Below are positions 2,395-61,971 of a DNA stretch of 64,000 nucleotides, one piece after another. Position numbers and translations under genes: made by a program. Each line of letters opens with the position of its first letter. The stretch's first letter is position 1. This DNA comes from Coriobacteriia bacterium (lineage in GTDB: Bacteria; Actinomycetota; Coriobacteriia; Coriobacteriales; UMGS124): NCBI GenBank assembly GCA_018368455.1, contig JAGZEG010000005.1:104654-168653 (forward strand), read 5' to 3'. A model generated the notes under the pieces. The model made no database searches. It was not told where the DNA came from and was given only the letters and a program-made list of their open reading frames with translations.

Positions 2395-3474
2395 ATGAGT
2401 CACTACGTATTGCCGGATCCTTCCCTGCTGGAAAAGGGCGGGGCGGGACCGCACCTGCTCTCCACCGTGTCGAGCTTGTATGCGCCACGGGACCTCAGTT
2501 TATCCGGGAAACTGTCGCCTGTCCGACTTGGTGACGTGCTGCCCTTTGTTGACGGCGGTCCGCTCGACGTCGCCGTGGGCTTTGACTTTGACGGCAAGCC
2601 CGTTCACATTGATCTTGCTGAGCTGGGCAGTCTCCTGGTGTCTGGCACGACTGCCGCGGGGAAAACCACTATGCTCAGGTCGATTATCACGTCCATACTT
2701 ATGCGGGCGACCCCTGATGAGGTGCGCCTCATCTTGGTGGACCCTAAGAAGGTCGAGCTTGGGGATTATGACGGCATCCCCCACCTTCTCGCGCCCCGGA
2801 TTACCGACGCGCGTTGGGCCGTCTCTGTGCTGAGGTGGTGTGTCGCCGAGATGGATCGGCGCCTCAAGGTATTCGCCGACGCTGGCGTACGCGACTTGAG
2901 AGGCTACAACGATCTCGTGGACCGCGGCTCTCTCGGGGAGCGGGATTCCCCTCTGGAGCGCCTGCCCAGCATCGTTATGGTCGTTGACGAGCTGACCGAC
3001 CTGATAATGTCGGCTCAGGAAGACGCCGAGACCTCAATTGTGCGGATTGCCCGGCTGGGTCGTACCGCCGGCGTACATCTGGTGCTGTCCAGCCAATCGG
3101 CACGCCCTGACATCGTTACGGAACCCATACTCGCTGGCTTCAGCTGCCACGTCGCCCTCAAGCGGCATAACAGTGTCGAATCTAAGCGCCTCATCGGACG
3201 TTCTGGTGCGGAGCTTCTGCGGATGCTCGGGGACATGCTGCTCTTGCTCCCAGGCCCAGACGAGGAACCGCGGCATGTCCAGGGGTGCTACCAATCTCAG
3301 GGGGAGATCCAAGCCGTCGTGGAACACTGGAGAGGACAGCCTGCCCCATGCTGCGATGCAGGAATGGCTCCATTGGATGAGCCAGATGTCTCTGGCGAGG
3401 AGGAACCGAGCAAGACGTGGCCCGGAAGATGGTCGGGTATTTGGAAGACTAGAGAGGAGACGACGTGCCGATGA
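2395..3474 (+). CDS. FtsK/SpoIIIE-family DNA-translocase ATPase, motor domain only (359 aa)
   Basis: Walker A GTTAAGKTT, LILVDPKKVELGDYDGIPHLL, Walker B VMVVDELTDL, and GVHLVLSSQSARPDIVT. No hydrophobic N-terminal segments. RBS GAAGGGAG. Confidence 0.85.
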   Translation: MSHYVLPDPSLLEKGGAGPHLLSTVSSLYAPRDLSLSGKLSPVRLGDVLPFVDGGPLDVAVGFDFDGKPVHIDLAELGSLLVSGTTAAGKTTMLRSIITSILMRATPDEVRLILVDPKKVELGDYDGIPHLLAPRITDARWAVSVLRWCVAEMDRRLKVFADAGVRDLRGYNDLVDRGSLGERDSPLERLPSIVMVVDELTDLIMSAQEDAETSIVRIARLGRTAGVHLVLSSQSARPDIVTEPILAGFSCHVALKRHNSVESKRLIGRSGAELLRMLGDMLLLLPGPDEEPRHVQGCYQSQGEIQAVVEHWRGQPAPCCDAGMAPLDEPDVSGEEEPSKTWPGRWSGIWKTREETTCR

Positions 3475-5237
3475 AAGACGAACACCCAGAGGTTGTAGGC
3501 TCCGTGGACCCGGCAAGCCCGGTGTCGGACTCGAAAGCGCCCGATGCGTCGCAAGATGTGCAGCCGGATGCCGCCCAAGATCCTAGCGAGCATGCACCGA
3601 GCCCTCGGGCTCGTAAGCATCGCATGAGGGACTTCACGTGGGGCCTCGGATACTGGCTGCCTGACGTGCAGAAGGCGGTGCTCCCGGAAGAGCTGCGCTT
3701 TCCTGATATGCTCGAAGCGGCGGGGGCAACGCGCGGGGAGGGCATGGTGCCGCTCTCGTCTGCGATGCCGACCGCGCAGCTGCGCATCGACGCGTTTCTG
3801 CCTGGTCTCGACGCTCTGACCCGGAGGCGCTACCTGAGGTCGCGTGCGAATGCGTTTCGCGTGTACCCCGACGGGACGCTGCATCTTCTGACGCTCAAGC
3901 GGGGCGTGCTGAGGGTGCACGATGACGCAAGCGCTGAGGAGATGCTGGCGGTCTGTCGCGAGTTCGGGCTGCTCCCGGAGCTAGGCACACTCGGCGCTGG
4001 CGTCGAGATCCGTACGAATCAGGAGGCGCTTGCTTATGCGTGCATCGTGAGCATGGAGTTCCTGCACGAGTGGGATTACGACGAGATCGCTGCCTCCCTC
4101 TGGCCCGATGTCGCCGAGCTGCTGCGGGCCGGGCGCATTAGTCCGAGCGACGTTGTGGCGACCGAAGGGTATACCGACACCATGCGTTACCGCAACCGGG
4201 CGTCTGAGTGCCTGGCATATCGCGTGCTCATGGGCGCAGAGGCCGCGGAGCCTAAGGTTTGCCGGAGGCTTGTCGAGTGTCTTGCGGCTCTACACCGATT
4301 TGCGTGCGACGAGAACTTTGACATGGAGGGAGAGATGCTCGCTTGGAAGGACCTACTGATCGCTGCCTACGCGAAGCATCCGCTCATCTTCCGTGACACG
4401 ATCTTGGCTCCCAACGAAATCCTCGGCTTCCACGACTACGGCGAGGATTACCAGAAGTCGTTCGATCGCTTCTACGGAGACCCCGCTCGCGCGATATTCG
4501 CGGCGCTTGAGGCGGGGAGCGAGCAAGCCGTGGAGGACGCGCTCGTGGCGTACGATCGCACCATGTTTCCGTGGAACTACGACATGGGCGGCCACCTGTT
4601 CCCCGGGGCGGGTGATGCAGGCAAGTGGGAGGATGGGTTCCGCCCTGACTATGACGAGTATTGGGAACACCCCGCAGACTCTTCGGAAGACGATGACGAG
4701 TGTTCGGATGAGGACGATGGGGACGCTGCCGAGGGCCCGAATGACGAACCTCCTGAGAAGGAGGAGGGGGCGAGACGTGCCGCTCCACCTCGCAGGAAGC
4801 TGGATCGCGATGAGATGGTGTTCCTTGCGCGGTGCCGTCTGATGACCGCTCGTCCTAACGGCTATGCTCTGTCGGAGGAAGATCCTTCCTGCGACCCACA
4901 ATGGCTCACCGACTGCCGGCGCAGCATCGAGGCGCTGCACCAGCTGGCGGGTGAGGTCCTGCCGGCCTCGGCCACCGTCGACGCTGAGCTTCGTGCGTGG
5001 TGCAAGCCCCTCTTCCTGATGCTTGCCGAGCACGAGGACACGGTGATCGACGTGTGCTTCGACGAGGCGGAAGCGATCTCCCGTGGCCAGGAGGATGACA
5101 TGCCTGGTGGGCTCGATTGCCGGCCCGCTGCCCAGGCGGTACTCGTGGCCCTGCGCTCCGGCGACCTGGATGCGCTGAGTACGGCCCTTGACGACTTGGA
5201 GGAGGCCGCCTATCCGCTGCCCCGCCGAGACGACTGA
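3471..5237 (+). CDS. Hypothetical 589-aa acidic protein with no recognisable motif
   Basis: ATGA start/stop overlap with the FtsK ORF (3471-3474), with GGAG upstream. A GTG at 3465 is an alternative start. Codon usage is GC3-rich like its neighbours. Contains an acidic run SSEDDDECSDEDDGDAAEG. Confidence 0.6.
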   Translation: MKDEHPEVVGSVDPASPVSDSKAPDASQDVQPDAAQDPSEHAPSPRARKHRMRDFTWGLGYWLPDVQKAVLPEELRFPDMLEAAGATRGEGMVPLSSAMPTAQLRIDAFLPGLDALTRRRYLRSRANAFRVYPDGTLHLLTLKRGVLRVHDDASAEEMLAVCREFGLLPELGTLGAGVEIRTNQEALAYACIVSMEFLHEWDYDEIAASLWPDVAELLRAGRISPSDVVATEGYTDTMRYRNRASECLAYRVLMGAEAAEPKVCRRLVECLAALHRFACDENFDMEGEMLAWKDLLIAAYAKHPLIFRDTILAPNEILGFHDYGEDYQKSFDRFYGDPARAIFAALEAGSEQAVEDALVAYDRTMFPWNYDMGGHLFPGAGDAGKWEDGFRPDYDEYWEHPADSSEDDDECSDEDDGDAAEGPNDEPPEKEEGARRAAPPRRKLDRDEMVFLARCRLMTARPNGYALSEEDPSCDPQWLTDCRRSIEALHQLAGEVLPASATVDAELRAWCKPLFLMLAEHEDTVIDVCFDEAEAISRGQEDDMPGGLDCRPAAQAVLVALRSGDLDALSTALDDLEEAAYPLPRRDD

Positions 5238-5313
5238 CGGCGTTTGGCCGGCGCGGCTGCGTTCCTGGGAGGGCGCTCAAGGATGGCTGGCCTGATGCCC
5301 TGCATGGGCCCTC

Positions 5314-5355
5314 CATCCCCGGGTGCCATCAAGATTGGGATGGTACCCGGGGATG
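5314..5355. terminator. Hairpin between convergent genes, a possible bidirectional terminator or module junction
   Basis: catccccgggtgccatc / ggatggtacccggggatg gives a ~17-bp stem with one G:U and a 6-7 nt loop. There is no flanking U-run on either strand. Confidence 0.35.
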
Positions 5356-5421
5356 CGCGGGGCGGCATCTGACGATGCTCAGAAGAAGGTCCCACTCGAG
5401 ATCATGCTCGTGGCGGATTTG

Positions 5422-6753
5422 TTATACCAAGAACTCCCCCTCGCTTTCCCGCATACGCTTCGCGAACTCTTTGAAGTCGCAATCGCCCGACGGTATCTGC
5501 AGCCCGCGCTTCTTGACGACAATGTCCTTCCGGGCTTCGACGTTCTCCTCGAAGGTGCTTCCCCTGTTCAGATGCAGGGTCACGTCTTGTGCTTTCTCTT
5601 TTTCCGGCGCGAATGGGTAGAGATAGTAGCCCGTCTTCGCGTCGAAGCGGAACATATAAGCCAGTAGCTGCTGGTAGTCGCGGCCTGATATGTTGCTGGC
5701 CGGTTTGTACTTCGCATCAGCGATCACCCGGACTTCACTGTCTCTGCCGATGAAGTCCGGGAAGATTAGCCCCTTCTCTCTGCTTTCTTCGCCCCAGAAG
5801 AGCTGCTGGCCGTTCCTCTCTTTCCCACGTCCCTTGTTTTTTGGGTGATAGAAGGCGTCTCTCATTAGAGTCGCCACGTACTCTTCCCAGAGCCACGCGC
5901 CGTCGAACAGCACGCCATATATCTGCTGGTCGCTCGTCCCGACCAGGTGCTTTCTATTTTGCAAGATCAGAAGACAGAGACGCTGTAGTGATCGATAGTC
6001 CCGGTAGTAGGCGTGGCGCACGGGATGTTTTCTGTTGGCCTCGATGACGCGTCGGGTATCGCGGGGAGAGAAGCCGGGTGTCAGCTTTTTGACAAGGGCC
6101 ACTTCATCTCTGGCTCTGGAGAGCAAAGCCTCGCCATAGGTCCTTCCCCTGACAACCTCTATGGTGTGCCTCACGAGCTCCATCAGGTCATTGTCGTAGG
6201 ACAGCTCCCTTTGGCTATAGGCGATCTTGCCGACGAAGGGAGTATTGCTTGCGATGTGCCTGGCAATGTCTATCGCACCGCGTACGTTGGCGTCGTTGTG
6301 CAGCCGTCTAACATACTCCTTGTAGGGGCCCTTTCGCATCGCTCGCTTCAGATAGCGGGGGAGCAACAGGGCTAGGTAGTCAAACAGGTTTCCGCTCAGG
6401 CTGGCGTCGGTTGGCAGGTCAATGATATTGGGAAGATCGAACACCCTGGCAATCATGTACTGCAGGAAGCTGTCGCGCCCGTCTTTGCCACTGAAGCGCG
6501 ACGATATGACGAGACGTTCCTCCCCTAGGCCGAGGAATCCCATCACGTTTCCTGTGCGATAGTTGCCGTCTATGCTTTGGAGAACCTCTGCATTCCCCTC
6601 AAGATCTTCGGCGTTCCTTATCGCCTCCGGAAGTACAAAAACGCCGTCCTTCTCAAGCTGGCTGAGGGTTCTGTCCGCGACTGCTTGCGCAAGGTGAGGG
6701 ATGCTGTCTAGGAACTCCTCCTTCTTTTTGCTGGAGTTGTCCTCAGTTCTCAT
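5422..6753 (-). CDS. mcrC: McrC-family nuclease subunit (system 1)
   Basis: C-terminal PD-(D/E)xK core: IFPDFIG...VIADAKYK. It overlaps the stop of the upstream McrB-like gene. Start is ATG 6753, with GTG 6771 as an alternative. Confidence 0.8.
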   Translation of the reverse strand: MRTEDNSSKKKEEFLDSIPHLAQAVADRTLSQLEKDGVFVLPEAIRNAEDLEGNAEVLQSIDGNYRTGNVMGFLGLGEERLVISSRFSGKDGRDSFLQYMIARVFDLPNIIDLPTDASLSGNLFDYLALLLPRYLKRAMRKGPYKEYVRRLHNDANVRGAIDIARHIASNTPFVGKIAYSQRELSYDNDLMELVRHTIEVVRGRTYGEALLSRARDEVALVKKLTPGFSPRDTRRVIEANRKHPVRHAYYRDYRSLQRLCLLILQNRKHLVGTSDQQIYGVLFDGAWLWEEYVATLMRDAFYHPKNKGRGKERNGQQLFWGEESREKGLIFPDFIGRDSEVRVIADAKYKPASNISGRDYQQLLAYMFRFDAKTGYYLYPFAPEKEKAQDVTLHLNRGSTFEENVEARKDIVVKKRGLQIPSGDCDFKEFAKRMRESEGEFLV

Positions 6754-8062
6754 TGGATGCACCGCTGTCACCTGTGGTGGGCTTCTTCTGTTTGGAGGAG
6801 AATGCCGCCTTGAATCCCTCCACGGCTTCTTCCGCGTCGGGCATTCCCTGGACGTAGTCCCTCAACAGCGGCTCGAGGTAGTCCTCCCAGAGCTCATTGG
6901 GCTTGAGTTCCTGCAACTTCTTGAAGTATGCTGCGCCTATCTGGTAGTTCCGACCCAGCTCACTGGTGTCTTTTATCGCCTTATTCAGGGATTTCATGCG
7001 ATCAATGGCATCCTGATATTCCTTTGCATCCAAGCCCTTTAGTGCATCCAGGCAGCTGTCAGCTTCGAGCTCTATGAAGCGGAACCTGCGGCGCATGGCG
7101 AAGTCGAAGCTGTCCACGGAGCGGTCGATGTCGTTCATCGTGCCGATGATGTACACGTTCTCTGGGATGTAGAAGCGCTCGCTCAAGTCATCGTGCAGGT
7201 TGGAGTACTGGGTCGACACCGCGCCCGACTCACCGCGATAGCCCGGGTCGATCGAGAAGAACAGCTCGCCGAAGATCTTCGAGATCTCCCCGCGGTTAAT
7301 CTCGTCGATGATGAAGACATAGGACTCGAGTTGAGGGATCGTGCCGGATGAGGTGCTCGCGGCGTGTTGCCGCTTCACGCGGCGCTTGCATATCTCATGG
7401 TACACGCCCCAATAATATGACCAACTGCTGTTCTGACGGTTTTTCCCAAAGAAGAGGGCAACTTCTCCGGGTCCTTCGAAATCCTTACCAGACTCGAGCA
7501 TCCTGGGAATGTAAGATGTGAATAGAGTTTTTCGATTGGATGATGCGTTGTTAGGGATAAATACATGGATGAGTCGTTCGCCTACGTCAGTGATAACGAA
7601 TTCTTTTCCCGTCTTTATCTTGAAAGGCGTTGATCCCAGCTCAATGCTTGAAAAGAACGAGCTCATCTCCTCCTGCGCGGACCGCTCTTTTGCCAGTTCG
7701 TTCGCGTCTTTGTGCGAGTCTTCCCAGTTCTTTCGGGCGCGATCGACAAAGCTCTTGAAGATGCCGTCACGCAGCTCGAAGCCCATAGACCCGTCGTCGT
7801 TCACCATCGGGCGCAGGCCCTCGACGAAGTCGGTGTAGTCATAGCTCGGGTGAAACTGCACGAACTCGATTCTTTCTTTTTGCTCGCTTGTGAGGTCCTC
7901 GTATTTCTCGCACGTGCCGTCGCTGACGATGTCTGCAGCTATCTGTTTTGCGAGATAGGACTTCCCGGTGCCGGGTGCCCCGTGAAAGATGACGTTCTTT
8001 GATTTACGTACTATAGTTGAGTAGTCATTAATAGTTTTTGGTTTATCCATAGGACTCTCCAT
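6743..8062 (-). CDS. mcrB: McrB-family AAA+ GTPase (system 1). It has no N-terminal DNA-binding domain but a large insertion inside the AAA+ core.
   Basis: FHGAPGTGKSY, FVQFHPSYDYTDFVEGLRP, FIIDEINRGEISKIFGELFFSID, and NVYIIGTMNDIDRSVDSFDFAMRRRFRFIEL. ATG 8050 has the better RBS (GGAGAG); ATG 8062 is the track start. Confidence 0.9.
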   Translation of the reverse strand: MESPMDKPKTINDYSTIVRKSKNVIFHGAPGTGKSYLAKQIAADIVSDGTCEKYEDLTSEQKERIEFVQFHPSYDYTDFVEGLRPMVNDDGSMGFELRDGIFKSFVDRARKNWEDSHKDANELAKERSAQEEMSSFFSSIELGSTPFKIKTGKEFVITDVGERLIHVFIPNNASSNRKTLFTSYIPRMLESGKDFEGPGEVALFFGKNRQNSSWSYYWGVYHEICKRRVKRQHAASTSSGTIPQLESYVFIIDEINRGEISKIFGELFFSIDPGYRGESGAVSTQYSNLHDDLSERFYIPENVYIIGTMNDIDRSVDSFDFAMRRRFRFIELEADSCLDALKGLDAKEYQDAIDRMKSLNKAIKDTSELGRNYQIGAAYFKKLQELKPNELWEDYLEPLLRDYVQGMPDAEEAVEGFKAAFSSKQKKPTTGDSGASNEN

Positions 8063-8113
8063 TTTATTTCAATTCTGGGGGTATATATACGAGCCTTTTT
8101 GCCGGTACCCGTG

Positions 8114-8152
8114 CTCGCCTGGGGCTACCACAATGGCAAAGTCCCAGGCGAG
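8114..8152 (-). terminator. Weak hairpin after the nuclease gene
   Basis: ctcgcctggg / cccaggcgag gives a 10-bp stem with a 19-nt loop. No U-run follows. Confidence 0.3.
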
Positions 8153-8159
8153 TCCACCC

Positions 8160-9425
8160 CTAGAAGGTGATTCCGGCGACGCGGGCTGCGTACTCCTCGG
8201 GGAGCTTCGAGAACAAGTCGCGCTCGAAAGCTTTGAGCTGACTCAGGGCTTTGTCCAGGGAGGCGAAAACCTCGCCGTCCGTAAAGCCCTCTTCAAAGGA
8301 CTTGTTCTGGGAGTAGTTCCAGTGCACCCTCCAAAGCCAGTTAGCCCCTTTCTTCGCCGACCCCTTCGTGGGGTAAAGGTCATTGATGGCCTCTGCAATT
8401 GCCTCCTGGTCCGATGGTAGCCCTTGATGATTGAGGGCCAATTTAATGCGCATCTTGGCGTTTCCCCGAGCACTGCCTCTCCCGCGCTCTATTTCGAAGA
8501 AGTAATGGTTGGCCGTTGACCAGCCGCTGTTTGCTTCCGGGCCATCGGGCAACAGCAGGGACATCTCGGGTGTGGTGAAGCGGGTGCAGGTCTTCACACA
8601 TTTGTCCTCATTCAAGATGAGCTCGCCGGAGCGCTGCTTCTCCCGGGCCCACCTAACGCAGGCATCTGCAAGCTCGGAGATCGCGTCGGGCAGGTTCTCG
8701 TAGATCAGGTCAAGTGCCCGTCGGTGCCTCGCGTATATGTCCCTGCAGACCCTCGCAAGCTCCTCGTCCTCCAAGACATCCCTCCTTATCGTGTCGACGT
8801 AGTCGTCGATGAGCATGCGCGGTCCCTCGGCAAGCTCGGCCCCGTCGGTTGCCGATCCGATGATTCTCAGCACGTCCTCGTAGCTCATCGGGAACCACGT
8901 GTCGGGGTCTGAAGCTTCGGCACCCTCCGGGGAGAGATAGACGAAGCGTCGGCGGAAGCCTGGGTAGGCGTGCTCGATTGTCTTTCGATACCTATCAAGC
9001 TGGTTGTCGTGCTCCCCGGTGCCGATCTTGTTTTCGATGCACAGGACGTATTTTTGGGTTTCTGAGACGGCTAGGATGTCGATGCTCTGCCATTCGCGCA
9101 GTACCGCGAAGTCGCGACAGTCCATGAGCAGGTCATCGAAGGCCTCCGCGTCGGGCAGGGACTCTGCCACGTGGCGCACGAAGCCCTGCATGACCCGGTC
9201 ACCCAGGCCGTGGTTCCCTTCGGGGTCCATGAGCCAGGCAAGGGCATTGCTGTGCCTGATCTCCACCCGGGAGATGCCGAGGACGTCGAACGTGTTGAAG
9301 CGCCTCGTCCATTTCGAAAGGCGATCGAGGCAGCCGATGTCCAGCAGGAAACGCCGGATACACTCCTCGTCCGTTCCCTGGGGATCGAGAGAAGCTGGGG
9401 CAGATTGATTGCCGCTTTCTAGCAT
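8160..9425 (-). CDS. PD-(D/E)XK nuclease family protein. The N-terminus is PDDEXK_4-like and the C-terminal part is DUF4268-like.
   Basis: FNTFDVLGISRVEIRHSNALAWLMDPEGNHGLG, followed by DILAVSETQKYVLCIENKIGTGEH (a D...E-x-K core). Family names are recalled from memory, not searched. Confidence 0.75.
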   Translation of the reverse strand: MLESGNQSAPASLDPQGTDEECIRRFLLDIGCLDRLSKWTRRFNTFDVLGISRVEIRHSNALAWLMDPEGNHGLGDRVMQGFVRHVAESLPDAEAFDDLLMDCRDFAVLREWQSIDILAVSETQKYVLCIENKIGTGEHDNQLDRYRKTIEHAYPGFRRRFVYLSPEGAEASDPDTWFPMSYEDVLRIIGSATDGAELAEGPRMLIDDYVDTIRRDVLEDEELARVCRDIYARHRRALDLIYENLPDAISELADACVRWAREKQRSGELILNEDKCVKTCTRFTTPEMSLLLPDGPEANSGWSTANHYFFEIERGRGSARGNAKMRIKLALNHQGLPSDQEAIAEAINDLYPTKGSAKKGANWLWRVHWNYSQNKSFEEGFTDGEVFASLDKALSQLKAFERDLFSKLPEEYAARVAGITF

Positions 9426-9443
9426 AAGCCGCAGCCCTCTCTT

Positions 9444-10370
9444 CTAGGATTTATCCTTCGTCTGCTCCCCAAGAAGACGGTCGTACTCGTTGACGAGGTC
9501 GTGCAGGAACGCAGCTCCTGCCTCGGGATCGCTCGTGACGAAGGAATCGAACGGATAGGCGGTTTTGTCGCCATTATAATAAGTCGAGAGGAGCGCTCTG
9601 GGCTCCGAGTCGTCGGCCTCGGGGCTGCCCGGGGCTGCAGGTGCAACGCCTGGATGAGAGGGGAGCACGGCGCTGGTGGCCCGGATGCCGAGGTCTCGCG
9701 CGATGTCTGGTGGCGTTGGCTGGACCTGATCACTGAGCCCGAATTTTAACTCGTCAAATGCATTCAGCTGCCAGACGTTTCCCTCTCTGACTGTTATGGC
9801 TGCCGGATAGTACGAGTTGTGACGGCCCTTCAGGGCCCCGATGTCGAAAGGCGCCGGTCCTAACTTCTTCCCTATGGGCCGGGGATCGCCAGGGAAGAAA
9901 CGGCGCAAGGCCTCGTGGGCGCGCTCCAACTGCGGGGCGTACCGGGCGATGGCCTCCATGACCTGTTCGCCCATCAGAGTATTTCCCGGGGTCCAGCCAA
10001 GGGAGCCATCTGCGTAGCGAAGCACGGGGGTCGGAAGATAGAGATAACTCTGGAGAGAATAGCTGTCCAAATCATCAAGATCATCGAGGGTGGCCTGATC
10101 GATCAAATCCGAAGCCTCGAATCTCATCTCGATGCAGCAGTCTGTTCCTTTGATTGGGGCCTGCAGGAGGAGATCCCCGTGGAGTCCGGTATCTCCTTTT
10201 CCCACGTCGAGATCACACTGCGAGACGTGCCAACCATCGTATTCGCTTTCTCCGAGGCGCGTCTCCAGTTCATCGACCTGTTGCCAGAGCTCTTCAATGT
10301 AGGAATTTACCTCATCGAGGGACTGCCGGATGGTGCTGAGCGCGCTCATTAGCGTCGACATGTATTGCAT
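9444..10370 (-). CDS. Hypothetical 308-aa protein with an N-terminal coiled-coil-like segment
   Basis: ATG 10370 has RBS GAAGGAGGGGG; the upstream extension in the track lacks one. The stop lies 18 nt before the nuclease gene start. N-terminal segment reads LDEVNSYIEELWQQVDELETRL. No motif recognised. Confidence 0.65.
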   Translation of the reverse strand: MQYMSTLMSALSTIRQSLDEVNSYIEELWQQVDELETRLGESEYDGWHVSQCDLDVGKGDTGLHGDLLLQAPIKGTDCCIEMRFEASDLIDQATLDDLDDLDSYSLQSYLYLPTPVLRYADGSLGWTPGNTLMGEQVMEAIARYAPQLERAHEALRRFFPGDPRPIGKKLGPAPFDIGALKGRHNSYYPAAITVREGNVWQLNAFDELKFGLSDQVQPTPPDIARDLGIRATSAVLPSHPGVAPAAPGSPEADDSEPRALLSTYYNGDKTAYPFDSFVTSDPEAGAAFLHDLVNEYDRLLGEQTKDKS

Positions 10371-10676
10371 GGATACCCCCTCCTTCTCTGGTGTGATTAT
10401 CCTCGCTCGTCGGCAGCGGGTGGATGGCTTTCGTATCAAGAAATACGTCTTTGATGACGGCGGCGCCTCTCCGACCGTAGCCTCGTGACGAGGCCTTCTG
10501 ATATGGTGCGGGGCCGCCTACCCACAGCCCCGCGAGTTGGCTGACGGCACCTGGTCGACGCGACCGTGGCCCCAGGAGAGCACTCGCGACGCTCGTGATC
10601 CGCGGCATCCAAACTCGCTCGATAATCGAGTCCAAAATGCCTCGAAAATCGAGTGTGAATTACCTCGAAAATCTAG

Positions 10677-10961: not shown

Positions 10962-12404
10962 CTATGCCCTCAGCGAGTCTCTAATCCCTTCCAGGAGCTC
11001 CCCGATCGTTCCCCTTTGGTTACCTGGGCCACCTTTGGGTGCTGTCCCCGGCAGTATGGAGCTCTCGCTGTGGAGGGACAGGTCGAGCATGAAGACTCTA
11101 ACGCGGAGCCCTCTGCCATCCGCCCCATCGCTGACGAACTTCTTCTGCCAGCCCGCCATAAGCCCTTGCGACTTTGGATATACCAGCACGACGTCGCTGA
11201 CCTTGTAGCGCTTGCCATAGGCGTACATCTGATAGAGGTCGTTTCGCGACGGTTGCGGGTTGCTACCGTCTAGCCGCTTCCACTTGGTGTCAAGGACGAC
11301 AGCAGGCTTCGGCTGGCCTCCCGCCTCTCGCTTCAGTATGACGATGTCAGGCGTCATCCTGATCCCGGCCCCGTCGCCTTCTTTTTTGTCGAAGAGATCC
11401 CGGACGGGCCCCTGTGTGCGGATCTCGATTGCCGACCCGTCGAGCGCCCCATTTTGCAAGGCCCGCCTCATGAGGTAGGGCACGTAGTCCTCGAAGACGC
11501 GCTCCATCGGGAAGAGTAGGGCTTCGCTGACTGTGGGGCCACTGAAAGCGGTGAATGAGCTACCCTCCAGGAAGATGCGCGCCCACTCAAGGGCCTGAGC
11601 GTAGTCGTCGAGGTTGCGATCTCGAACGCAGAGTGACGCCGCCTTGCGCCAGTCGGGCGTATCGTCCACGCCATCGAACATCGCCAGGAGCCTGCGGATA
11701 CGCGTGCGGTTCTCGGAGCTCGTGCTCCTGTTGAGCAGCCGTGCGAGCGCCGCCTTGATGACGCGGTTCTCCGGGCGGTTGAGCCCAAACACGGCGTGGC
11801 GCACGAAACACCGCGACCGGTCGATGGGATTGGCCCGCAGGTCTTGCGCCACGAGGAGCCGACCGCGCAGAAAGCGCTCGTTAGAATCGCGCGGGGTGTA
11901 CCCGGAGCGCAGGCCGCGCTGGGCGAGTCGTTCGACCTCCTCGACGAACATGCGGATGAACAGCTCGTAGAGCGGCATGCGATGGGAGAACAGCGACGAG
12001 CGCCCCAAGTGCTTGAACGAGGTGCCGCGCAGAGCTGCGAGCATGCGGATGAAGGCCTCTTTCGTTTGCTCGAGGCCGTCGCTTGAAGGGCGCTCGTTGC
12101 TGGCGGTTTCCAGGTCGAGCCCCGCTATCTTTGGCAGAATCTCGACGGTGAATCCGTTCTTTGTGGTGAGGACGCCCACGTAATTGCGCGCTTGGATCGA
12201 GCGCTGGCGTTCTGCCATGCCCAGGCGCATGATCTCGATGGGGTCCTCCGAGTCGACGTCTCGCTCTGCCGCTCGAAGGATGAAGTCATAGAGCTGGTTG
12301 AAGGCGTCTTCTTCCATGGACGTGCAGCCAGGACTCGGGCTGTCCTGGCTGCCGTCACTTACGAGCTTGTCGAACTCGCGGATTTGAATGAGGTTGCGAG
12401 GCAT
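10962..12404 (-). CDS. mcrC: McrC-family nuclease subunit (system 2)
   Basis: MPRNLIQIREFD... N-terminus and C-terminal core TPDIVILK...VVLDTKWK...LYQMYAY. ATG 12404 lies 1 nt after the mcrB stop (TAAcATG). The 141-aa upstream extension in the track overlaps mcrB and is rejected. Confidence 0.85.
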   Translation of the reverse strand: MPRNLIQIREFDKLVSDGSQDSPSPGCTSMEEDAFNQLYDFILRAAERDVDSEDPIEIMRLGMAERQRSIQARNYVGVLTTKNGFTVEILPKIAGLDLETASNERPSSDGLEQTKEAFIRMLAALRGTSFKHLGRSSLFSHRMPLYELFIRMFVEEVERLAQRGLRSGYTPRDSNERFLRGRLLVAQDLRANPIDRSRCFVRHAVFGLNRPENRVIKAALARLLNRSTSSENRTRIRRLLAMFDGVDDTPDWRKAASLCVRDRNLDDYAQALEWARIFLEGSSFTAFSGPTVSEALLFPMERVFEDYVPYLMRRALQNGALDGSAIEIRTQGPVRDLFDKKEGDGAGIRMTPDIVILKREAGGQPKPAVVLDTKWKRLDGSNPQPSRNDLYQMYAYGKRYKVSDVVLVYPKSQGLMAGWQKKFVSDGADGRGLRVRVFMLDLSLHSESSILPGTAPKGGPGNQRGTIGELLEGIRDSLRA

Positions 12405-12405
12405 G

Positions 12406-14670
12406 TTATGCGTCCGCATCCTCGTCGCTGGCTTGGTTGCTCTCGTCGGCGGCTGCCTCGGGCTGGCGAGACCTATAGGGACCGAAGCTCTCGTAGATGC
12501 GCCGGAAGTCGCTTGCGGACCACGCATTGCCGTCCGTCCTGTCGATGACCTCGAAGCGCGCTCCGACGGTATCTGCCATGTTGTCGAGAATTCCGAGGTC
12601 GATCCCGAGGGACTCGCTCTCGTCATCTCCGATCTTGTGCACGAACTTCCCGTCCCTGTCGTTGAGTACGGCGCGGATGAGGTCGTAGTCCTCAAAGAAA
12701 TAGTCCTGCAGCAGCGGGATGATCTTGCCTGCGAACGCCTGCCTGATGTCGCCGAGCGAGGCGACCTTCCAGAATAGGGAGTGGCCGAGCACGTGGTCGC
12801 GGTCGAGCAGCGCCTCGATGCGCGCATTCATTGCCTGGAGCATCCAGGGGACATCGACGCCATCGACAATGCCTTCGTTTCCGAGATGGTTGCGCAGGGC
12901 GTCATAGTCTGGGCCGACCTCCTCGAACGAGAAGCGCCGCCTGAACGCCGCGTCGAGCTTGGTGAGCGAACGGTCGGCCGTGTTCATCGTCGCGATGATG
13001 TGGACGTTGCCCGGGATGCCCCACCTCTGCTTGGAGTAGGGGAGCAGGACCGTGCGCTCGTCTTCGCCACCGAGCCGCTTGTCTTCTTCGAGCAGCGTAA
13101 TAAGCTCGCCAAAGATGGCCGCCACATTTCCGCGATTCAGCTCGTCGATGATGAACACGTAGGCGTCGCTGGGGTGGTTGGCGGCTTTTTCACAGAAGGA
13201 TTTGAAGACGCCGTCTTCTACTGCGTACGCGAGTGAATGGCTGTCGTCCGGGCTGGTACGTTCCCCGTCCGTAAGAACGGGGCGAATGCCTTCGACGAAG
13301 TCCTCATACGAGAACGATTGGTGGAACGACACAAAGCCGATGCGGCCTTCATCTTCGAGAGCTTTGTAGCGATCGGAAATCTCATCCCAGTCATCGGGCA
13401 CGTCGCTGCCGATGATGCCGACGGCACGCCGTTTCGTTTGATACGTCTTTCCCGTCCCCGGCGCACCGAAAAGGACGGTGTTCAATGCAACGCTCGCATT
13501 GTTCTGGCGCATAGGCCGATCGATGACACTTGACTCTGGAGCGAGCCCTCCTCCTAGCTCATTCTGGATATGGAAAAACTGCTGCTCACTAATCTCGTCA
13601 AGAGTTATCCCTCGTCGGCCGAGATTGCCCATCGTTGAAACCTGAGAGTCATCCTTCAAGGTATTGAAAGGTACGGGATTGTTGAAATTTGCCAATCGCC
13701 TAAAATATAACGCGGATCCATCATACGGTTTGGTGGCTTGTAATACGGAACAGGCTGCCTTAATAGGCGTTGCCATATATGCAATAAAATAGTCACCTGT
13801 ATTTATATGCTTAAAACAATCTATTTTTTTCAGGCTTTTTCCATTTTGTCTTTTGGTGTGAAAAATCATTTCCTCGTCAGTGGGGGACTGGCGGGGATCC
13901 CATTCTCTCGGGGAGAGGTTCAGGAACATATAACGAGGTGCGGAAGATACGTTGTTGCCGTCTTGCCTGGCGGCAGCATAAGCCCGCTCCGAGAGGTGGG
14001 GGATGTCGTCCTCAGCTAGTTTGTTTGACAAAAGAGCTTCTTGAATGCGATCTAGAGCATCAAGATACCGAGCGCCGCTGGATGAACTCCACTCGATATC
14101 AGGTATCAATGTTCTGAGCGGGCCGTACTCTTTGAGATTTCTATCAAGAGGAGGAAAAAAGTCGGGGCAAATATAGAACAAGCATTGCGGGAGATTGCTG
14201 TCCGCTACGCCCTTTATTTCAAGTGCGCGATCGTAATCTTTGTAAAAAGAATTCTTTTCTGAATCACCCTGGTTTTTACTCAGTCTCCGGGCAGACTTGA
14301 AAAGTTGCCAGAGGGCAGGGACGCTTTCCTCCTGGGAATCTGCATCTGCGAAGAGCCACCACGCATTGGCTGTGGGGAATCCGGGATAGGCGGATGGAAT
14401 GTCTCCAGAAAGATTAAGTCTTGATTTTAGCTCTAGTAGTATACTTCTTCTTGTTCTATCATTATACCTAAATATCTGAATATAAAAAGAGAACGGATCC
14501 ATGAGCGAAGGAAATAAACCGTTGTTTGTTTTTGGCCTCGCAGAGTCGGGGACAATGTTCGTCTTTATCTGTTCAAGTAATTCGATTAGCTTATCACTGC
14601 AGAATTCAAATTGAGTTAGTGATTCATTAATACTGCTAATTATATGGTAATTATGGTAATCAGGGCTCAT
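12406..14670 (-). CDS. mcrB: Long McrB-family AAA+ GTPase (system 2, 754 aa) with a ~400-aa N-terminal sensor region that includes an EVE/PUA-like module
   Basis: FGAPGTGKTY, VSFHQSFSYEDFVEGIRP, FIIDELNRGNVAAIFGELITLLE, and NVHIIATMNTADRSLTKLDAAFRRRFSFEEV. EVE-like stretch at ~13555-13941: YMFLNLSPREW...TGDYFIAYMATPIKAACSVLQAT...NPVPFNTLKD...ITLDEISEQQF. ATG 14670 has RBS GGGAGGGTGG. Confidence 0.9.
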   Translation of the reverse strand: MSPDYHNYHIISSINESLTQFEFCSDKLIELLEQIKTNIVPDSARPKTNNGLFPSLMDPFSFYIQIFRYNDRTRRSILLELKSRLNLSGDIPSAYPGFPTANAWWLFADADSQEESVPALWQLFKSARRLSKNQGDSEKNSFYKDYDRALEIKGVADSNLPQCLFYICPDFFPPLDRNLKEYGPLRTLIPDIEWSSSSGARYLDALDRIQEALLSNKLAEDDIPHLSERAYAAARQDGNNVSSAPRYMFLNLSPREWDPRQSPTDEEMIFHTKRQNGKSLKKIDCFKHINTGDYFIAYMATPIKAACSVLQATKPYDGSALYFRRLANFNNPVPFNTLKDDSQVSTMGNLGRRGITLDEISEQQFFHIQNELGGGLAPESSVIDRPMRQNNASVALNTVLFGAPGTGKTYQTKRRAVGIIGSDVPDDWDEISDRYKALEDEGRIGFVSFHQSFSYEDFVEGIRPVLTDGERTSPDDSHSLAYAVEDGVFKSFCEKAANHPSDAYVFIIDELNRGNVAAIFGELITLLEEDKRLGGEDERTVLLPYSKQRWGIPGNVHIIATMNTADRSLTKLDAAFRRRFSFEEVGPDYDALRNHLGNEGIVDGVDVPWMLQAMNARIEALLDRDHVLGHSLFWKVASLGDIRQAFAGKIIPLLQDYFFEDYDLIRAVLNDRDGKFVHKIGDDESESLGIDLGILDNMADTVGARFEVIDRTDGNAWSASDFRRIYESFGPYRSRQPEAAADESNQASDEDADA

Positions 14671-14704
14671 TTGATGCCACCCTCCCGGGCTATTAAAAAT
14701 ACTC

Positions 14705-14989
14705 CTACAGCCTATGCTGGTACGGATTGCCGGTAACCCAACCGGTGTCGTAGTTGTCGGTTGTAAAGCAAACTTTGAGATCAGCGTCGTACTGGCTGTC
14801 GACCCAGCACACGGTGGATGTGGGGCTGTCGTACTGGCTGTCGACGTAGTACCAGCGTTCGTCCCCGTTTGCGTCGCACTGATCATTGGTGACGAACGCT
14901 TTGAGGTCGGCCTGATACCGGTCGTCCGTAACAAACACCTTAATGGCGTTGCTGTCGTACTGATTGTCCGTGACCCAGATGCGTGCCAT
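14705..14989 (-). CDS. 94-aa internally repetitive protein. It resembles the DUF6150 / 7(1)-septoil-knot small-protein family as I recall it.
   Basis: RBS GAGGAGG 6 nt before the ATG. Four degenerate repeats: VTDNQYDSNAIKVF / VTDDRYQADLKAF / VDSQYDSPTSTVC / VDSQYDADLKVC, ending in TGW. It lies 34 nt upstream of mcrB system 2 on the same strand. Confidence 0.7.
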   Translation of the reverse strand: MARIWVTDNQYDSNAIKVFVTDDRYQADLKAFVTNDQCDANGDERWYYVDSQYDSPTSTVCWVDSQYDADLKVCFTTDNYDTGWVTGNPYQHRL

Positions 14990-15078
14990 TCTCAGCCTCC
15001 TCTGTGGGCCAATACCTTAGAAAAGCGAAGCAAGAACTGAGTTTGAGTTTAGCCGTATGCAAGGAAGGCCAAATAGTC

Positions 15079-15088
15079 GGGGGGGGGG
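15079..15088. repeat. G10 homopolymer (C10 on the operon strand)
   Basis: Ten consecutive G, 90-99 nt upstream of the 14989 ATG. An AT-rich TTAAT-N6-ATTAA palindrome is adjacent. Confidence 0.95.
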
Positions 15089-15324: not shown

Positions 15325-15633
15325 ATGGGAAAGAAGGCTCAAGATCCGATCGTGCTCGAGGGCGAGGCTCTGGCTGGCCACCTGCGTGCAGACCACGCGG
15401 TGTACATGGATTATGCGGGCGCCTCGTACTACCTCACCGACGTCAACGATCACTTCTGGCGCGTCCAGGACACGGCCGAGCTCAACGACAAGGGCCACTT
15501 CGTTGACGCGTCCGAGCCCGTCGCCACGCTGGCGGAGTTCCTCGACATGCCGTTGCCGGTCCTCGGCGACAAGTCCATCGCCGATGTCCAGGCCGACGCG
15601 ACGTTCTACGCTTCCGAGAAGCCCGAAGCGTAG
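15325..15633 (+). CDS. Hypothetical 102-aa protein
   Basis: ATG 15325 has RBS AAGGGAG. GC3-rich codon usage. Followed by a strong terminator. Confidence 0.6.
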   Translation: MGKKAQDPIVLEGEALAGHLRADHAVYMDYAGASYYLTDVNDHFWRVQDTAELNDKGHFVDASEPVATLAEFLDMPLPVLGDKSIADVQADATFYASEKPEA

Positions 15634-57591: not shown

Positions 57592-58303
57592 AAGTCTCTC
57601 TGCCTCGGTTTCTTGGGCTAGCCGAAGATCCAGGCGATGCTTTCGACTACAAGTCTATCGCTGCCCGTTGCGTCGGTTTGCTGGACGGCTGGGTGCCGGT
57701 CTCATCTCGGGTGCTGCCTCTCGGCGGGCCACTTTCAAGCAGTTGGGTGGAAGAACCGCCTGAACGGCGTCGCGCACCGGCACCTGTGCGGTGTTGCAGG
57801 GGCCAGTTTGCACGAAATCGGCCCGTGATGGCCTGGAAAGCCGTCTGTGTATGGCGCATACCGATATGCCCTGCTGGTGCGGCTCCCTTTTGAGGCCGTC
57901 GGCCTGGCTTTAGGGTGTCGTGCATGTACATGATCGACTTTTTTGCCCAAAAATCGAGCCTTCGCCTGCAGAAGCCCAAGTCGCCGGCTCTGATCGCTTC
58001 ATTGTTGCGGCGCTTAGGCTGTTTCGGGGCGAATCGATCCACGCTGGCCTTGCGGATCGTGGATGGCGTGCTTTTCGATGGCTTGCTAGGCGATTGGAAA
58101 CAGACGGCGTGATGTTTCCGACGCCTGCGGCCCGTTGGGGTCATTCTGTCGGGCGAGCTCTGGCCAAATGAGGCCCGTCTGCGCGAGGAATCCCGAATCT
58201 CTTTTCTGCTGGTTGCAGGCGGAATGGCTTGTCCATGCGTCACAATGGGACGCGTTGCTTTCGTTGGTTTGCGGTATCGTGGGCCGTAGGGGGAGGGATG
58301 TGC

Positions 58304-60445
58304 ATGCGTCGCGTTCTGTGCTTTTGCGAAAAGTGGGAGTCTGGCGGTATCGAGGCATTCCTCACGAGTGTCTACGAACGCATGGATCTTTCTGACCTCC
58401 GTATCGATATCGTGACGTGCCAGTACGCGCCGGGCATCTATGACGAGCGTCTTGCGCGGGTGGGCCTGAGCGTGCGCGTTCTATCTGGTAGCGTGCGCAA
58501 GCTGGGTCGTAATCTCAGGCTGTATCGAGAGCTGCTCGCCAAAGAACGCTATGACGTAGCGCACCTGAACCTGTATGAGGGCGCGGGCCTGCTCTTCGCA
58601 GCAGAGGCACGTCGCGCGGGCGTTCCCAAGATTATCGTCCACAGCCATAACACCGACCTGCATCCCGGTATGCTTCGTTCCCTTAAGCTGGCGGTGCACC
58701 GCAGTTTTGTGCGGCGGTATGCGGGGCAGTCCGATGTGCGCTGGGCGCCGTCGGAGGTGGCAGCGCGCTTCTTGTTCGGCGACCTGCCCTGGACGCTTTT
58801 GCTGAATGGCATCGAGCCGGGGCGATTCGCGTTTGACGCTGAGGCACGCACCAAAGAGCGCGCGGCGCTGGGTGTTTCCGAGGATCAGCTGCTCTTGGGC
58901 TGCGTGGGACGCTTGTGCGCCCAGAAGAATCAGGCTTTCTTGATAGATCTGCTCGCGGAGATCCCCCGCGCAGCTTTGCTCCTTGTGGGTAAAGGCGAGG
59001 ACGAGTCGATGCTACGGGTCCTCGTTGCCGAGAGGGGCGTGGTGGACCGCGTGATATTCGCGGGGACGATCTCGGATGTGGCCCCGCTCTACAGCGCGAT
59101 GGACGTCCTGTGCGTCCCCTCGCTTTTTGAGGGGCTCGGTATCGTGGCGATCGAGGGCCAGGCGGCTTGCTTGCCGGTTCTTTGCTCACCAGCGGTTCCT
59201 CCCGAGGCTCACGTGACCGAGCTCTGCGAGTACCACGAGCTCGGACATAACGCGTGGGGAGAGCGCTTGGCTAAGATGACGGCTGATCCCGGTGCGCGCG
59301 AACGGCTCTCAAAGGACGTGCGGAGCCGTCTCGCCCTGGCGGGGTACGACATCCAGGATACGGCGAGAAAGATCTGGACGTCGTACTGCAACGACGGGGG
59401 CATCGGCAAGGAGCATGGGGAATCTCGTTTGGACGCAATACCTGGCAGGACGCGCATGGATTCTGATGACACGGGCGGCTGTTTGGCAGATGCCCTCGTC
59501 AGCATCATCGTTCCCGTCTACCAGGTTGAGCCCTATCTTGCGGACTGCCTTGATAGTCTGCTAGCGCAAACATACAGCAATCTGGAGATCATCCTGGTGG
59601 ATGACGGCTCAACTGACGGAAGCGGTAAGCTGTGCGATGCCTATGCAGAGCGTGACGGGCGCGTTAGAGTCATACATCAGAAGAACGCCGGTCTCTCTGC
59701 CGCCCGCAATGCGGGCTTGGACATCGCTCGGGGAGATTATTACGCTTTCGTGGACAGCGACGACGTCGTAAGCCCGTTCTTTGTCGAGACGCTGCTGGGC
59801 CTGGATGCCGATATCGCCCAGTGTGGTTTCTCTACCGAGGAAGAGGGGCTGGCGCCTGACGACCAGTGCTTGCCTGACAGCGTAGAAAGGCTGTCTGGCC
59901 GTGACGCGTGTGAGGCTCTCGCGCGAGACCGAACGGGCTCATACACCGTCGTTTGGAACAAGCTGTTTAGGCGGCGCGTGTTCGATGACCTGAGGTTTCC
60001 CCAGGGCAAACAGCACGAGGACGAGTTTGTGAGCTGGCAGGCCTTCTGGAGCGCGTCTCGCGTCGCCATAACGGAGGCTCCGCTTTACTTCTATCGCCAG
60101 CGGCCTGAGAGCATCATGGGCCGAGGAGTGAGTGAGAAGAGCTTTGATGCAATCGATGCGTTGAAGGAGCGCAAGGAGTTCTATCATCTTCAAGGGGACA
60201 AGCAGCTAGAAGACCTGACAGCCGCGACGCTGTGCCATCGCATCCAGGCTATTGCCCTGGATTATCGGGATGCCGACGGGAAGCAGCGCGGTCTTACGGC
60301 GGTTCTTCGACTCTCGTTCGGTGAAGCACTTCGCTCTCCCTATGTGTCCCTGCGCTCTAAGTTGATTTTAGCTATTCGTATGTTCAGGCTGTCTTTAACG
60401 CAAAGGCTTGCTTGTGATAATCGTAGCAACGCGACGAATAGATGA
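58304..60445 (+). CDS. Bifunctional glycosyltransferase: GT4 (GT-B, family-1-type) fused to GT2
   Basis: N-terminal half: RVLCFCEKWESGGIEAF...VPSLFEGLGIVAIEGQA. C-terminal half: VSIIVPVYQVEPYLADCLDSL...VDDGSTDGS...FVDSDD. ATG 58304 lies 6 nt after GGGAGGG. Confidence 0.8.
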   Translation: MRRVLCFCEKWESGGIEAFLTSVYERMDLSDLRIDIVTCQYAPGIYDERLARVGLSVRVLSGSVRKLGRNLRLYRELLAKERYDVAHLNLYEGAGLLFAAEARRAGVPKIIVHSHNTDLHPGMLRSLKLAVHRSFVRRYAGQSDVRWAPSEVAARFLFGDLPWTLLLNGIEPGRFAFDAEARTKERAALGVSEDQLLLGCVGRLCAQKNQAFLIDLLAEIPRAALLLVGKGEDESMLRVLVAERGVVDRVIFAGTISDVAPLYSAMDVLCVPSLFEGLGIVAIEGQAACLPVLCSPAVPPEAHVTELCEYHELGHNAWGERLAKMTADPGARERLSKDVRSRLALAGYDIQDTARKIWTSYCNDGGIGKEHGESRLDAIPGRTRMDSDDTGGCLADALVSIIVPVYQVEPYLADCLDSLLAQTYSNLEIILVDDGSTDGSGKLCDAYAERDGRVRVIHQKNAGLSAARNAGLDIARGDYYAFVDSDDVVSPFFVETLLGLDADIAQCGFSTEEEGLAPDDQCLPDSVERLSGRDACEALARDRTGSYTVVWNKLFRRRVFDDLRFPQGKQHEDEFVSWQAFWSASRVAITEAPLYFYRQRPESIMGRGVSEKSFDAIDALKERKEFYHLQGDKQLEDLTAATLCHRIQAIALDYRDADGKQRGLTAVLRLSFGEALRSPYVSLRSKLILAIRMFRLSLTQRLACDNRSNATNR

Positions 60446-60653
60446 TTCAGAGTATGCAACGCTTTTGGTGTTTCGCTTACTAAACCGAAAAGCTTTGAAT
60501 GCATTTTGGCGGTCTACATTCCGTGAAGTGAATAGTTGTCGGGTAATCTAGATGAGTTGAATTTTGCCTAATACATATAATTCAACTGGAGAATTCTTGC
60601 GCGATGGGGCGCTCTTGTTTTTTGTGAACGCCTTGGTTGGATGGGAGATGTGT

Positions 60654-61835
60654 ATGTCACTGAAGATTGCAGTTGCTGGCGCGGGCTATGTGGGCCTTGC
60701 GAATGCCGTCATGCTGGCACGCCATCACGAAGTTCGCCTCGTTGATGTTGTCCCGGAGAAAGTCGAGCTCATCAACCAGGGGACTTCTCCCATTATTGAC
60801 CGTGAAATCTCGGAATATCTAGGCAAAAGCGATCTGAACTTAACGGCGACGCTAGATGCGCCCTCCGCATATACCGGAGCCGATATAGCTTTCATTGCTA
60901 CACCTACAAATTACGACGAGGAAACTCACGCTTTTGATACCTCTTCTGTCGAAGCGGCATATCGCGCAATTCGCGCGGTGAACATCGCATGCCCGATCGT
61001 TATCAAGTCGACCGTTCCGATTGGGTATACCCAACGCCTGCGCGAAGAGGCGTCCGATGACGCGATTCTGTTTTCTCCCGAATTCTTGCGGGAGGGCAAG
61101 GCCCTGTATGACTGTCTGCACCCCTCGCGTGTCATTGTCGGCGCGGCCGACAAGAATGATCCTCGTGCCCGACAAGCGGCCGATCTTCTTGTTGAAGGAG
61201 CGCTTGACGAGAATGTTCCCGAGCTGGTTATGCAGTCCACCGAGGCGGAGGCTGTCAAACTTTTTGCCAACACGTATCTCGCCCTGCGCGTAAGCTACTT
61301 CAACGAGCTGGATACGTTTGCTGACGTGCGAGGGCTTGATGCACGGTCAATCATCGATGGCGTCTGCCTCGATCCACGCATTGGCGGCCACTACAACAAT
61401 CCGTCCTTTGGCTATGGCGGCTACTGCTTGCCCAAGGACACGAAGCAGCTGCTGGCCAACTACGACAACGTTCCGCAGAACCTCATGCAGGCCATTGTTG
61501 ACTCGAACCAAACGAGGATGGCATACATCGCTGAGACCATATTGCGAAACAATCCGAAGGTTGTCGGCATCTATCGACTCACAATGAAGTCAAATTCCGA
61601 CAACTTCCGCCAGTCTTCGATTCAGGGCGTCATCAAGGAGCTGCGCAGGCGTGGTGCGACGATTCTGATCTACGAGCCTATGGCCCAGGGGGCGGAGTTC
61701 ATGGGTCTCGAGGTTACGAAGGATCTGGAGGACTTTAAGCGCCGTAGCGATGCGATTGCAGCAAATCGCATGTCGCCCGAGCTGTGCGACGTTGCAGATA
61801 AGGTGGTCACGCGCGACCTGTTCAAACGGGACTAA
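60654..61835 (+). CDS. ugd: UDP-glucose 6-dehydrogenase
   Basis: [16 protein letters not shown] and catalytic [14 protein letters not shown]. 393 aa. Confidence 0.9.
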
Positions 61836-61971
61836 GGGCGGAGCGCTGAAGCGAGGCCGAGATCCAGGCAACTGCGAGCCCTTCTGGGGAAGAGACGATT
61901 TACTGGCTTCTTGGCGCAGCATGTAGAACGTCAGACCAGGCGTGTTTTGCGCGAGCGGCAAAGGAGAGTGC

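Follow-up and report, generated by a model that had tools for sequence, protein, structure and literature searches.

The stretch analysed here, referred to as the window, comprises 64,000 nucleotides (nt) of contig JAGZEG010000005.1 (assembly GCA_018368455.1, positions 104,654 to 168,653) from a Coriobacteriia bacterium. Its minus strand encodes, in the order of transcription, a protein of 94 amino acids (aa), an McrB and an McrC, and the locus is almost certainly an McrBC type IV restriction system. Taken as a whole, the evidence is best explained by a type IV McrBC system with a co-transcribed, probably inhibitory modulator encoded by the small gene, a reading to which we assign a probability of about 0.4.

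A first-pass annotation of this DNA had placed the small gene 34 nt ahead of a 754-aa McrB, with mcrC starting 1 nt after the mcrB stop codon, and both the open reading frames (ORFs) and their spacings were as claimed (Table 1). The mcrB ORF occupies 12406-14670 with its ATG at 14670, and base 12405 alone lies between the mcrB stop and the ATG of mcrC. The small ORF and mcrB each follow a ribosome-binding site of the GGAGG type, a search of the operon region revealed no terminator-like site on the minus strand, and we infer that the small gene is co-transcribed with mcrBC. The same three genes were called in 16 metagenome contigs, all of which encode an identical small protein. An 842-aa McrB ORF extended to a TTG, which overlaps the small gene, was rejected because alignments with homologues start at residue 1 of the 754-aa protein and gene callers favour the ATG at 14670. 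The idea that the small ORF is spurious was rejected, as its conservation, its Pfam match and the existence of 235 relatives speak against it.

Upstream of the small gene, in a divergent intergenic region, a C10 homopolymer is the sole variable site in a 150-nt stretch that is otherwise identical across 12 contigs, where it occurs as C9, C10, C11, C4GC6 and C4AC5. The tract may be phase-variable, or its variation may be an artefact of assembly. Scanning and inspection of the sequence around the tract gave no convincing sigma-70 promoter.

Family matches and motifs upheld the earlier identification of McrB and McrC. McrC matched Pfam PF10117 (E=9.7e-79) and carries the PD-(D/E)xK motif D353...D372-T-K374. 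McrB contains the Walker A sequence GAPGTGKT (aa 402-409) and the signature MNTADRS (aa 562-568); its GTPase part matched Pfam AAA_5 (E=1.7e-14) and, over aa 393-661, the NCBIfam McrB model, and in the PDB McrB matched 6ut3 (Thermococcus McrB, E=2.3e-50) and EcMcrB (E=7e-38). The N-terminal ~240 aa had been described as an unknown region; they correspond to DUF8425 (PF28527), which is common in McrB homologues as judged by BLASTP and whose profile found no solved homologue in the PDB.

An EVE/PUA-like module had also been proposed for McrB, and this proposal held at the level of profiles only. The Pfam EVE model (PF01878) gave no match at E<=0.01 against full McrB or at E<=1 against aa 1-420, and EVE is absent from the precomputed domain list. 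In contrast, hhalign aligned aa 246-368 with seven EVE regions of McrB homologues (probability 85.5%, E=5.7e-6, 112 columns), and BLASTP aligned the same region with residues 378-502 of protein P0240, which are the Pfam EVE domain of that protein. Going by profile evidence alone, it is reasonable to regard aa 246-368 as EVE-like. A word-indexed homologue search with McrB aa 1-400 gave no match.

The defence island that contains the operon has a GC content of 0.45-0.62, compared with 0.68-0.70 in the flanking rplM-rpsI-glmM region, and is therefore probably foreign DNA. Judged from its sequence, the locus appears to have been horizontally acquired, and modification-dependent restriction is predicted for its McrBC.

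Table 1. Coordinates of the operon features and of the adjoining McrBC-like genes within the window
Feature	Position	Strand	Basis
Septknot/DUF6150 small gene, 94 aa	14705..14989	minus	ORF; Pfam PF19647, E=4.6e-20; AF2; periodicity and charge
Small-gene ribosome-binding site GAGGAGG	14996..15002	minus	Sequence reading
34-nt spacer between small gene and mcrB, with mcrB ribosome-binding site GGGAGGG, without terminator	14671..14704	minus	
McrB aa 1-240, DUF8425 (PF28527)	13951..14670	minus	Precomputed Pfam on identical protein; BLASTP to McrB homologues
McrB aa 246-368, EVE/PUA-like putative modified-base reader	13567..13935	minus	hhalign; BLASTP
McrB AAA+ GTPase core	12688..13494	minus	Pfam AAA_5; NCBIfam McrB; PDB 6ut3; motifs
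McrB C-terminal tail and stop codon	12406..12687	minus	ORF
McrC, 480 aa, DUF2357/McrBC family	10962..12404	minus	Pfam PF10117; PD-(D/E)xK motif
Swappable reader cassette, 5' 1.2 kb of mcrB	13483..14688	minus	blastn breakpoints against L047; Pfam; GC
C10 homopolymer, ~90 nt upstream of small gene	15079..15088	none	Sequence variation among contigs
331-aa protein without assigned family	9444-10439	minus	
PDDEXK_4 / PADLOC PDC-S26 protein	8160-9425	minus	E=1e-120
McrB2, without N-terminal reader	6743-8062	minus	
McrC2	5422-6771	minus	

Exchange of the McrB reader between sister alleles

A sister allele (L047-L049) occupies the same chromosomal site as the window operon. The two alleles are 96.8% identical in the small gene, 95% in McrC and 94% over McrB residues 396-754. 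The 1.2 kb between the small gene and the C-terminal half of McrB, however, is fully replaced in the sister, where the McrB (P0166) has an Mrr_N+DUF8425 reader in place of the DUF8425+EVE-like reader of the window. When the window was compared with L047 by blastn, the breakpoints fell 16 nt past the small-gene stop and at about codon 396 of mcrB. The exchanged segments correspond to 13483-14688 of the window and 2251-3476 of L047, and their flanks are 95-96% identical. Within the window the cassette has a GC content of 0.449, compared with 0.604 for the remainder of mcrB. The comparison thus provides a clean natural case of the exchange of a McrB reader-domain cassette between conserved flanks. 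Since the small gene was kept through the swap, it is part of the conserved frame, whichever reader is present.

In L047 an AAA_14/DUF4143 ATPase gene (6007-7314) is inserted just past mcrC on the opposite strand; the window does not have it.

The small protein and its relatives

The small protein had been assigned to the DUF6150/septoil-knot family, and a hidden Markov model search agreed. PF19647 (DUF6150) matched aa 3-85 with 71.9 bits against a cutoff of 27 (E=4.6e-20), and on this sequence evidence membership of the family is firm. Precomputed annotations from newer Pfam give the family the name Septknot, which we use below. A phmmer search of 1.84 billion representative proteins returned 235 relatives at E<=1e-3, and a word-indexed homologue search returned none. 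Family members come in two forms: cytoplasmic proteins of ~92 aa that end in ...GW..G[HN]..Q.RL, and longer proteins with N-terminal signal-like extensions. Across 139 PF19647 sequences W46 is invariant and A27, D28, A69 and W84 are at least 90% conserved.

With an isoelectric point (pI) of 4.1 and a net charge of -9, the window protein is strongly acidic, and its conserved 'YDAD' acidic loops are common to the whole of PF19647. It is also repetitive, as first noticed, although the four copies of ~20 aa described initially are rather six units of 13-16 aa. Six units are indicated both by autocorrelation (lags 14, 27 and 42; z = 4.4, 4.1 and 6.6) and by the six strands of the all-beta AlphaFold2 (AF2) model, which was built with a 30-sequence alignment and reached a predicted local distance difference test score (pLDDT) of 94.7. 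The modelled fold is probably compact and very stable.

All of the top four Foldseek matches in the PDB were entries of Q9PR55 (top match 8iwa_A), an experimentally solved, hyperstable 7_1 knot protein (PMC10840475). The match had a probability of 0.93 and E=4.9e-3, but template modelling (TM) scores of only 0.30-0.38 and a root-mean-square deviation of ~10 Å. At the sequence level, two family profiles searched against the PDB sequences did not match Q9PR55 at E<=10. From modelling, fold identity between the small protein and the solved 7_1 knot is plausible but unproven.

Among the representative proteins P0019, P0004 and P0035, some fuse a truncated Septknot to other sequence, which by eye resembles a NERD-like nuclease fragment in one case and a cytidylate kinase in another; P0035 consists of two Septknots in tandem. 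All of these are probably fusions created by gene calling or by deletion.

Septknot neighbourhoods were collected by scanning genomes and metagenomes with a family sub-alignment and by exact-match lookups of representative proteins, and the context was usable for ~27 distinct lineages. Loci were scanned with a closer subset of the family, since the broad alignment was too diverse. In a neighbour-joining tree the window protein grouped with a Coriobacteriia clade formed by Eggerthellaceae and Atopobium metagenome-assembled genomes. All members of this clade are strongly acidic (pI 4.05-4.4, net charge -7 to -11).

A restriction-type nuclease gene lies immediately downstream of the Septknot gene, on the same strand and 34-153 nt away, in four of the seven clade lineages, and the short spacers are terminator-free. 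The nucleases differ in family. The window and L047 have McrBC directly downstream; L001 has a GmrSD_N+DUF7834 gene followed by a second GmrSD_N; L019, L020 and L046 have a GmrSD_N+GmrSD_C gene; and L021 has an HSDR_N nuclease gene. In one further lineage (loci L002, L024 and L025) Septknot stands alone at the edge of an island that contains an N6 methylase and, in L002, also McrBC. A near-identical Septknot in L023 precedes a different gene without assigned family, and in P0009 the Septknot gene lies in a mobile element, with an FtsK/SpoIIIE gene on one side and a gene for a DnaG/DnaB_C primase-helicase on the other. L019 and L020 carry an integrase; L046, which has the same GmrSD gene beside Septknot, is a matching IMG/VR contig (55% identity).

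The first-pass annotation had considered that homologues of the small gene might recur directly ahead of McrBC-like pairs. They do so in the window and in L047; other clade relatives precede GmrSD or HSDR_N genes, and many family members lie in mobile or housekeeping contexts. The small gene is retained alongside the McrBC scaffold in the sister allele with its exchanged reader. The associated proposal of a dedicated third component of McrBC is too narrow, because a related McrBC (L050) has no Septknot and the closest relatives of the small protein precede GmrSD-type and HSDR_N nucleases. The earlier impression that such a small repeat protein had not been described as a McrBC component agrees with our own searches. 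We found no mention of DUF6150, PF19647 or Septknot in the papers available for searching, DUF6150 is not mentioned in the main text of the McrBC census paper, and no published description of an association between Septknot genes and restriction nucleases was found. We regard the window operon as a standard McrBC to which a recurrent accessory gene, so far undescribed, is joined.

A phmmer screen with the tested restriction families gave no match beside any of ~20 lineages outside the clade. Two loci outside the clade have other nuclease-like neighbours. In L051 an HNH homing-endonuclease-like gene (4307-4912; PADLOC HEase, E=1.6e-5) begins 19 nt after Septknot in a polyvalent-protein element, and in L055 an Exo_endo_phos gene (4565-5368) lies two genes downstream of Septknot in a prophage-like block. 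The nuclease association may accordingly be wider than the Coriobacteriia clade. One further Septknot outside the clade adjoins a SHOCT protein.

A possible modulator of restriction nucleases

Going by established McrBC biology, McrB would read foreign DNA through its N-terminal DUF8425 and EVE-like module and would assemble into an AAA+ GTPase ring that drives the PD-(D/E)xK nuclease McrC to cleave. The first cistron, presumably co-transcribed with mcrBC, would contribute a strongly acidic, compact all-beta Septknot of 94 aa. This protein would not be a core subunit. We propose that it may be a portable modulator, independent of nuclease family, that moves with restriction-nuclease cassettes in Coriobacteriia. 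Its most likely role would be that of a stable inhibitory 'safety catch', similar to an immunity protein or a DNA mimic, and might restrain the DNA-binding activity of the nuclease, for example while the cassette establishes itself in a new host.

Four observations lead to the modulator reading: the placement of the gene upstream of unrelated nucleases, its retention across the reader swap, the uniform acidity of the clade and the compact fold. A specific protein-protein adaptor is unlikely to serve enzymes that differ this much. All partners would be accommodated by a generic agent that masks DNA-binding surfaces or competes for them. The parts of this proposal are not equally well founded. 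The odds are slightly in favour of a functional link between the small gene and the nuclease. We infer a physical interaction between the two and an inhibitory direction of the effect; an inhibitory or DNA-mimic mechanism, which is suggested by analogy, is a doubtful prospect. It appears unlikely, if conceivable, that this one Septknot clade forms a new class, made up of hyperstable, acidic and possibly knotted proteins that act as built-in immunity or DNA-mimic regulators of McrBC, GmrSD, HSDR_N and perhaps HNH nucleases.

Several results weigh against an inhibitory modulator. McrBC and GmrSD systems generally lack a Septknot partner, and the Septknot gene is missing from the next-closest distinct McrBC (L050; McrB 66% and McrC 63% identical). 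With four nuclease-linked lineages, the sample for synteny is small. Between the window and the sister allele the small gene shows three nonsynonymous and four synonymous changes, which makes the dN/dS evidence weak. Acidity is not specific to DNA mimics. When known anti-restriction and DNA-mimic families were sought for the small protein in Pfam, NCBIfam, PADLOC and PHROGs, DUF6150 was the only assignment returned, and fold searches of its model against the PDB and BFVD gave no anti-restriction or DNA-mimic match and no similar viral (BFVD) structure. Finally, Septknot genes outside the clade also occur in housekeeping-like or unrelated contexts (Cupin_5, fructosamine kinase and ComEA-like) and many PF19647 members have signal peptides, so that no single defence role fits the whole family.

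The small protein could alternatively be independent cargo of mobile elements, perhaps a factor that counters restriction or other defences of the recipient host. It would then lie beside the nuclease only because the same integrative elements carry both as early or leading-region cargo, and it would not act on its neighbour. Mobile settings are indeed frequent: in addition to P0009, the integrase-bearing L019 and L020 and the IMG/VR contig L046, Septknot occurs outside the clade in an element that also encodes an integrase and Prim-Pol (P0155) and near an LPD23 polyvalent protein (P0285), and in P0289 it shares a prophage-like block with genes for a terminase and a ParB-methyltransferase. The window island itself has an FtsK-like gene and a GC content below that of the host. 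Against this, tblastn of Septknot proteins against 72,556 plasmids and 50,697 phage genomes found no homologue, and PHROGs contained no match. Three further scans of viral contigs for Septknot were also negative. The position of Septknot tightly upstream of four nuclease families on the same strand is hard to obtain from co-residence alone, and cargo without a function at the locus does not readily account for the retention of the gene across the reader-cassette swap. We consider independent cargo improbable.

Alternatively, Septknot may be unrelated to restriction, for example as a stable metal- or ligand-binding beta protein, with its present adjacency due to chance and to hitchhiking at an rplM insertion hotspot. 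The heterogeneous contexts of the family, including housekeeping and secreted forms, would be expected in this case, as would 'YDAD' loops that are family-wide and not specific to the clade. Chance adjacency is difficult to reconcile with a nuclease immediately downstream in four of seven clade lineages, with the differences in family among these nucleases and with the short, terminator-free spacers, and we judge it an improbable explanation as well.

More unlikely again is a positive accessory subunit on which full McrBC activity depends, be it an adaptor, a factor for assembly or stability, or a phage-protein sensor. Its attraction lies in the first-cistron position of the gene, its conservation with the AAA+/McrC scaffold and the existence of three-gene McrBC-like systems such as LlaI and BsuMI. 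In those systems, however, R1 is a DNA binder of ~330 aa that serves McrB homologues whose DNA binding comes from this separate protein. The window McrB keeps its own reader domains, and its small partner is acidic and only 94 aa long. A single adaptor for McrB, GmrSD and HSDR_N enzymes is implausible, and the related L050 system manages without Septknot. An R1-like DNA-binding subunit was rejected outright, as both size and charge are wrong.

If the inhibitory modulator reading is correct, it would provide the first biological role for a family tentatively tied to the 7_1 knot and the first self-encoded 'brake' described for type IV restriction. Type IV enzymes have no partner methylase, and how they avoid self-toxicity on horizontal transfer is poorly understood; a portable regulator would be a testable answer. 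It would also give Septknot/DUF6150 its first functional context, which is of interest to the protein-folding field owing to the suspected link to the most complex protein knot known.

Surrounding genes and comparison with known systems

Directly downstream of the operon, a second McrBC-like system occupies 5422-10439 of the minus strand (Table 1). Its PDC-S26 protein gave no match in the PDB. The region at 2395-5237 contains an FtsK/SpoIIIE-family gene (2395-3474, plus strand, E=2e-51) followed by a 590-aa protein without family match; the two may have served transfer or replication in an integrative element with which the defence island arrived. The interval from the small gene to rplM contains a divergent 102-aa gene (15325-15633, plus strand) that matches no family and is 94.7% identical in the sister allele. 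Elsewhere in the window, a low-GC (0.43-0.56) polysaccharide-biosynthesis cluster at 58229-63399 encodes a fused GT4-GT2 glycosyltransferase, a UDP-glucose/GDP-mannose dehydrogenase and a TupA-like ATP-grasp protein.

The operon shares with canonical McrBC systems (E. coli and Thermococcus gammatolerans) an AAA+ GTPase McrB with Walker A and MNxxDRS motifs, an N-terminal reader on McrB, a McrC of the DUF2357 and PD-(D/E)xK type, and nearly overlapping adjacent genes. It differs by the additional, co-oriented Septknot cistron at its front and by a reader that combines DUF8425 with a divergent EVE-like domain missed by the Pfam EVE model. As the first-pass annotation had noted, EVE-McrB fusions as such are well known; no other EVE fusion is as common (Bell et al., PMC7641849 and PMC11090510).

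With Q9PR55 of Ureaplasma, the protein with the 7_1 'septoil' knot, the small protein has in common its size (~90 aa), an all-beta fold and a pseudo-repeat. Q9PR55 has five SFPD loops, in contrast to the six YDAD-type units of the window protein.

Small acidic inhibitors of nucleases include Ocr, ArdA, T4 Arn (directed against McrBC), T4 IPI* (directed against GmrSD) and the immunity proteins of colicin DNases. Septknot resembles them in size (~80-170 aa), in low pI and in its tie to McrBC and GmrSD, the enzymes that Arn and IPI* inhibit. It differs in that it matches none of them in sequence or fold and is encoded in the operon of the nuclease itself, not by a phage, and its own inhibitory action is hypothetical.

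LlaI and BsuMI (R1-R2-R3) likewise consist of three co-transcribed genes that end in a McrB-like motor and a McrC-like nuclease, an arrangement that the window operon presumably shares. Their R1 is nonetheless a large DNA-binding protein with a positively charged surface, as shown for LlaI.R1, and these systems come with methyltransferases; the first gene of the window operon encodes 94 aa with a pI of 4.1, and the reader is retained on McrB. LlaI and BsuMI are thus not a precedent for the window operon. The closer likeness is found in the second system of the window (5422-9425), in which a separate putative DNA-binding/nuclease protein is followed by a motor without N-terminal domain.

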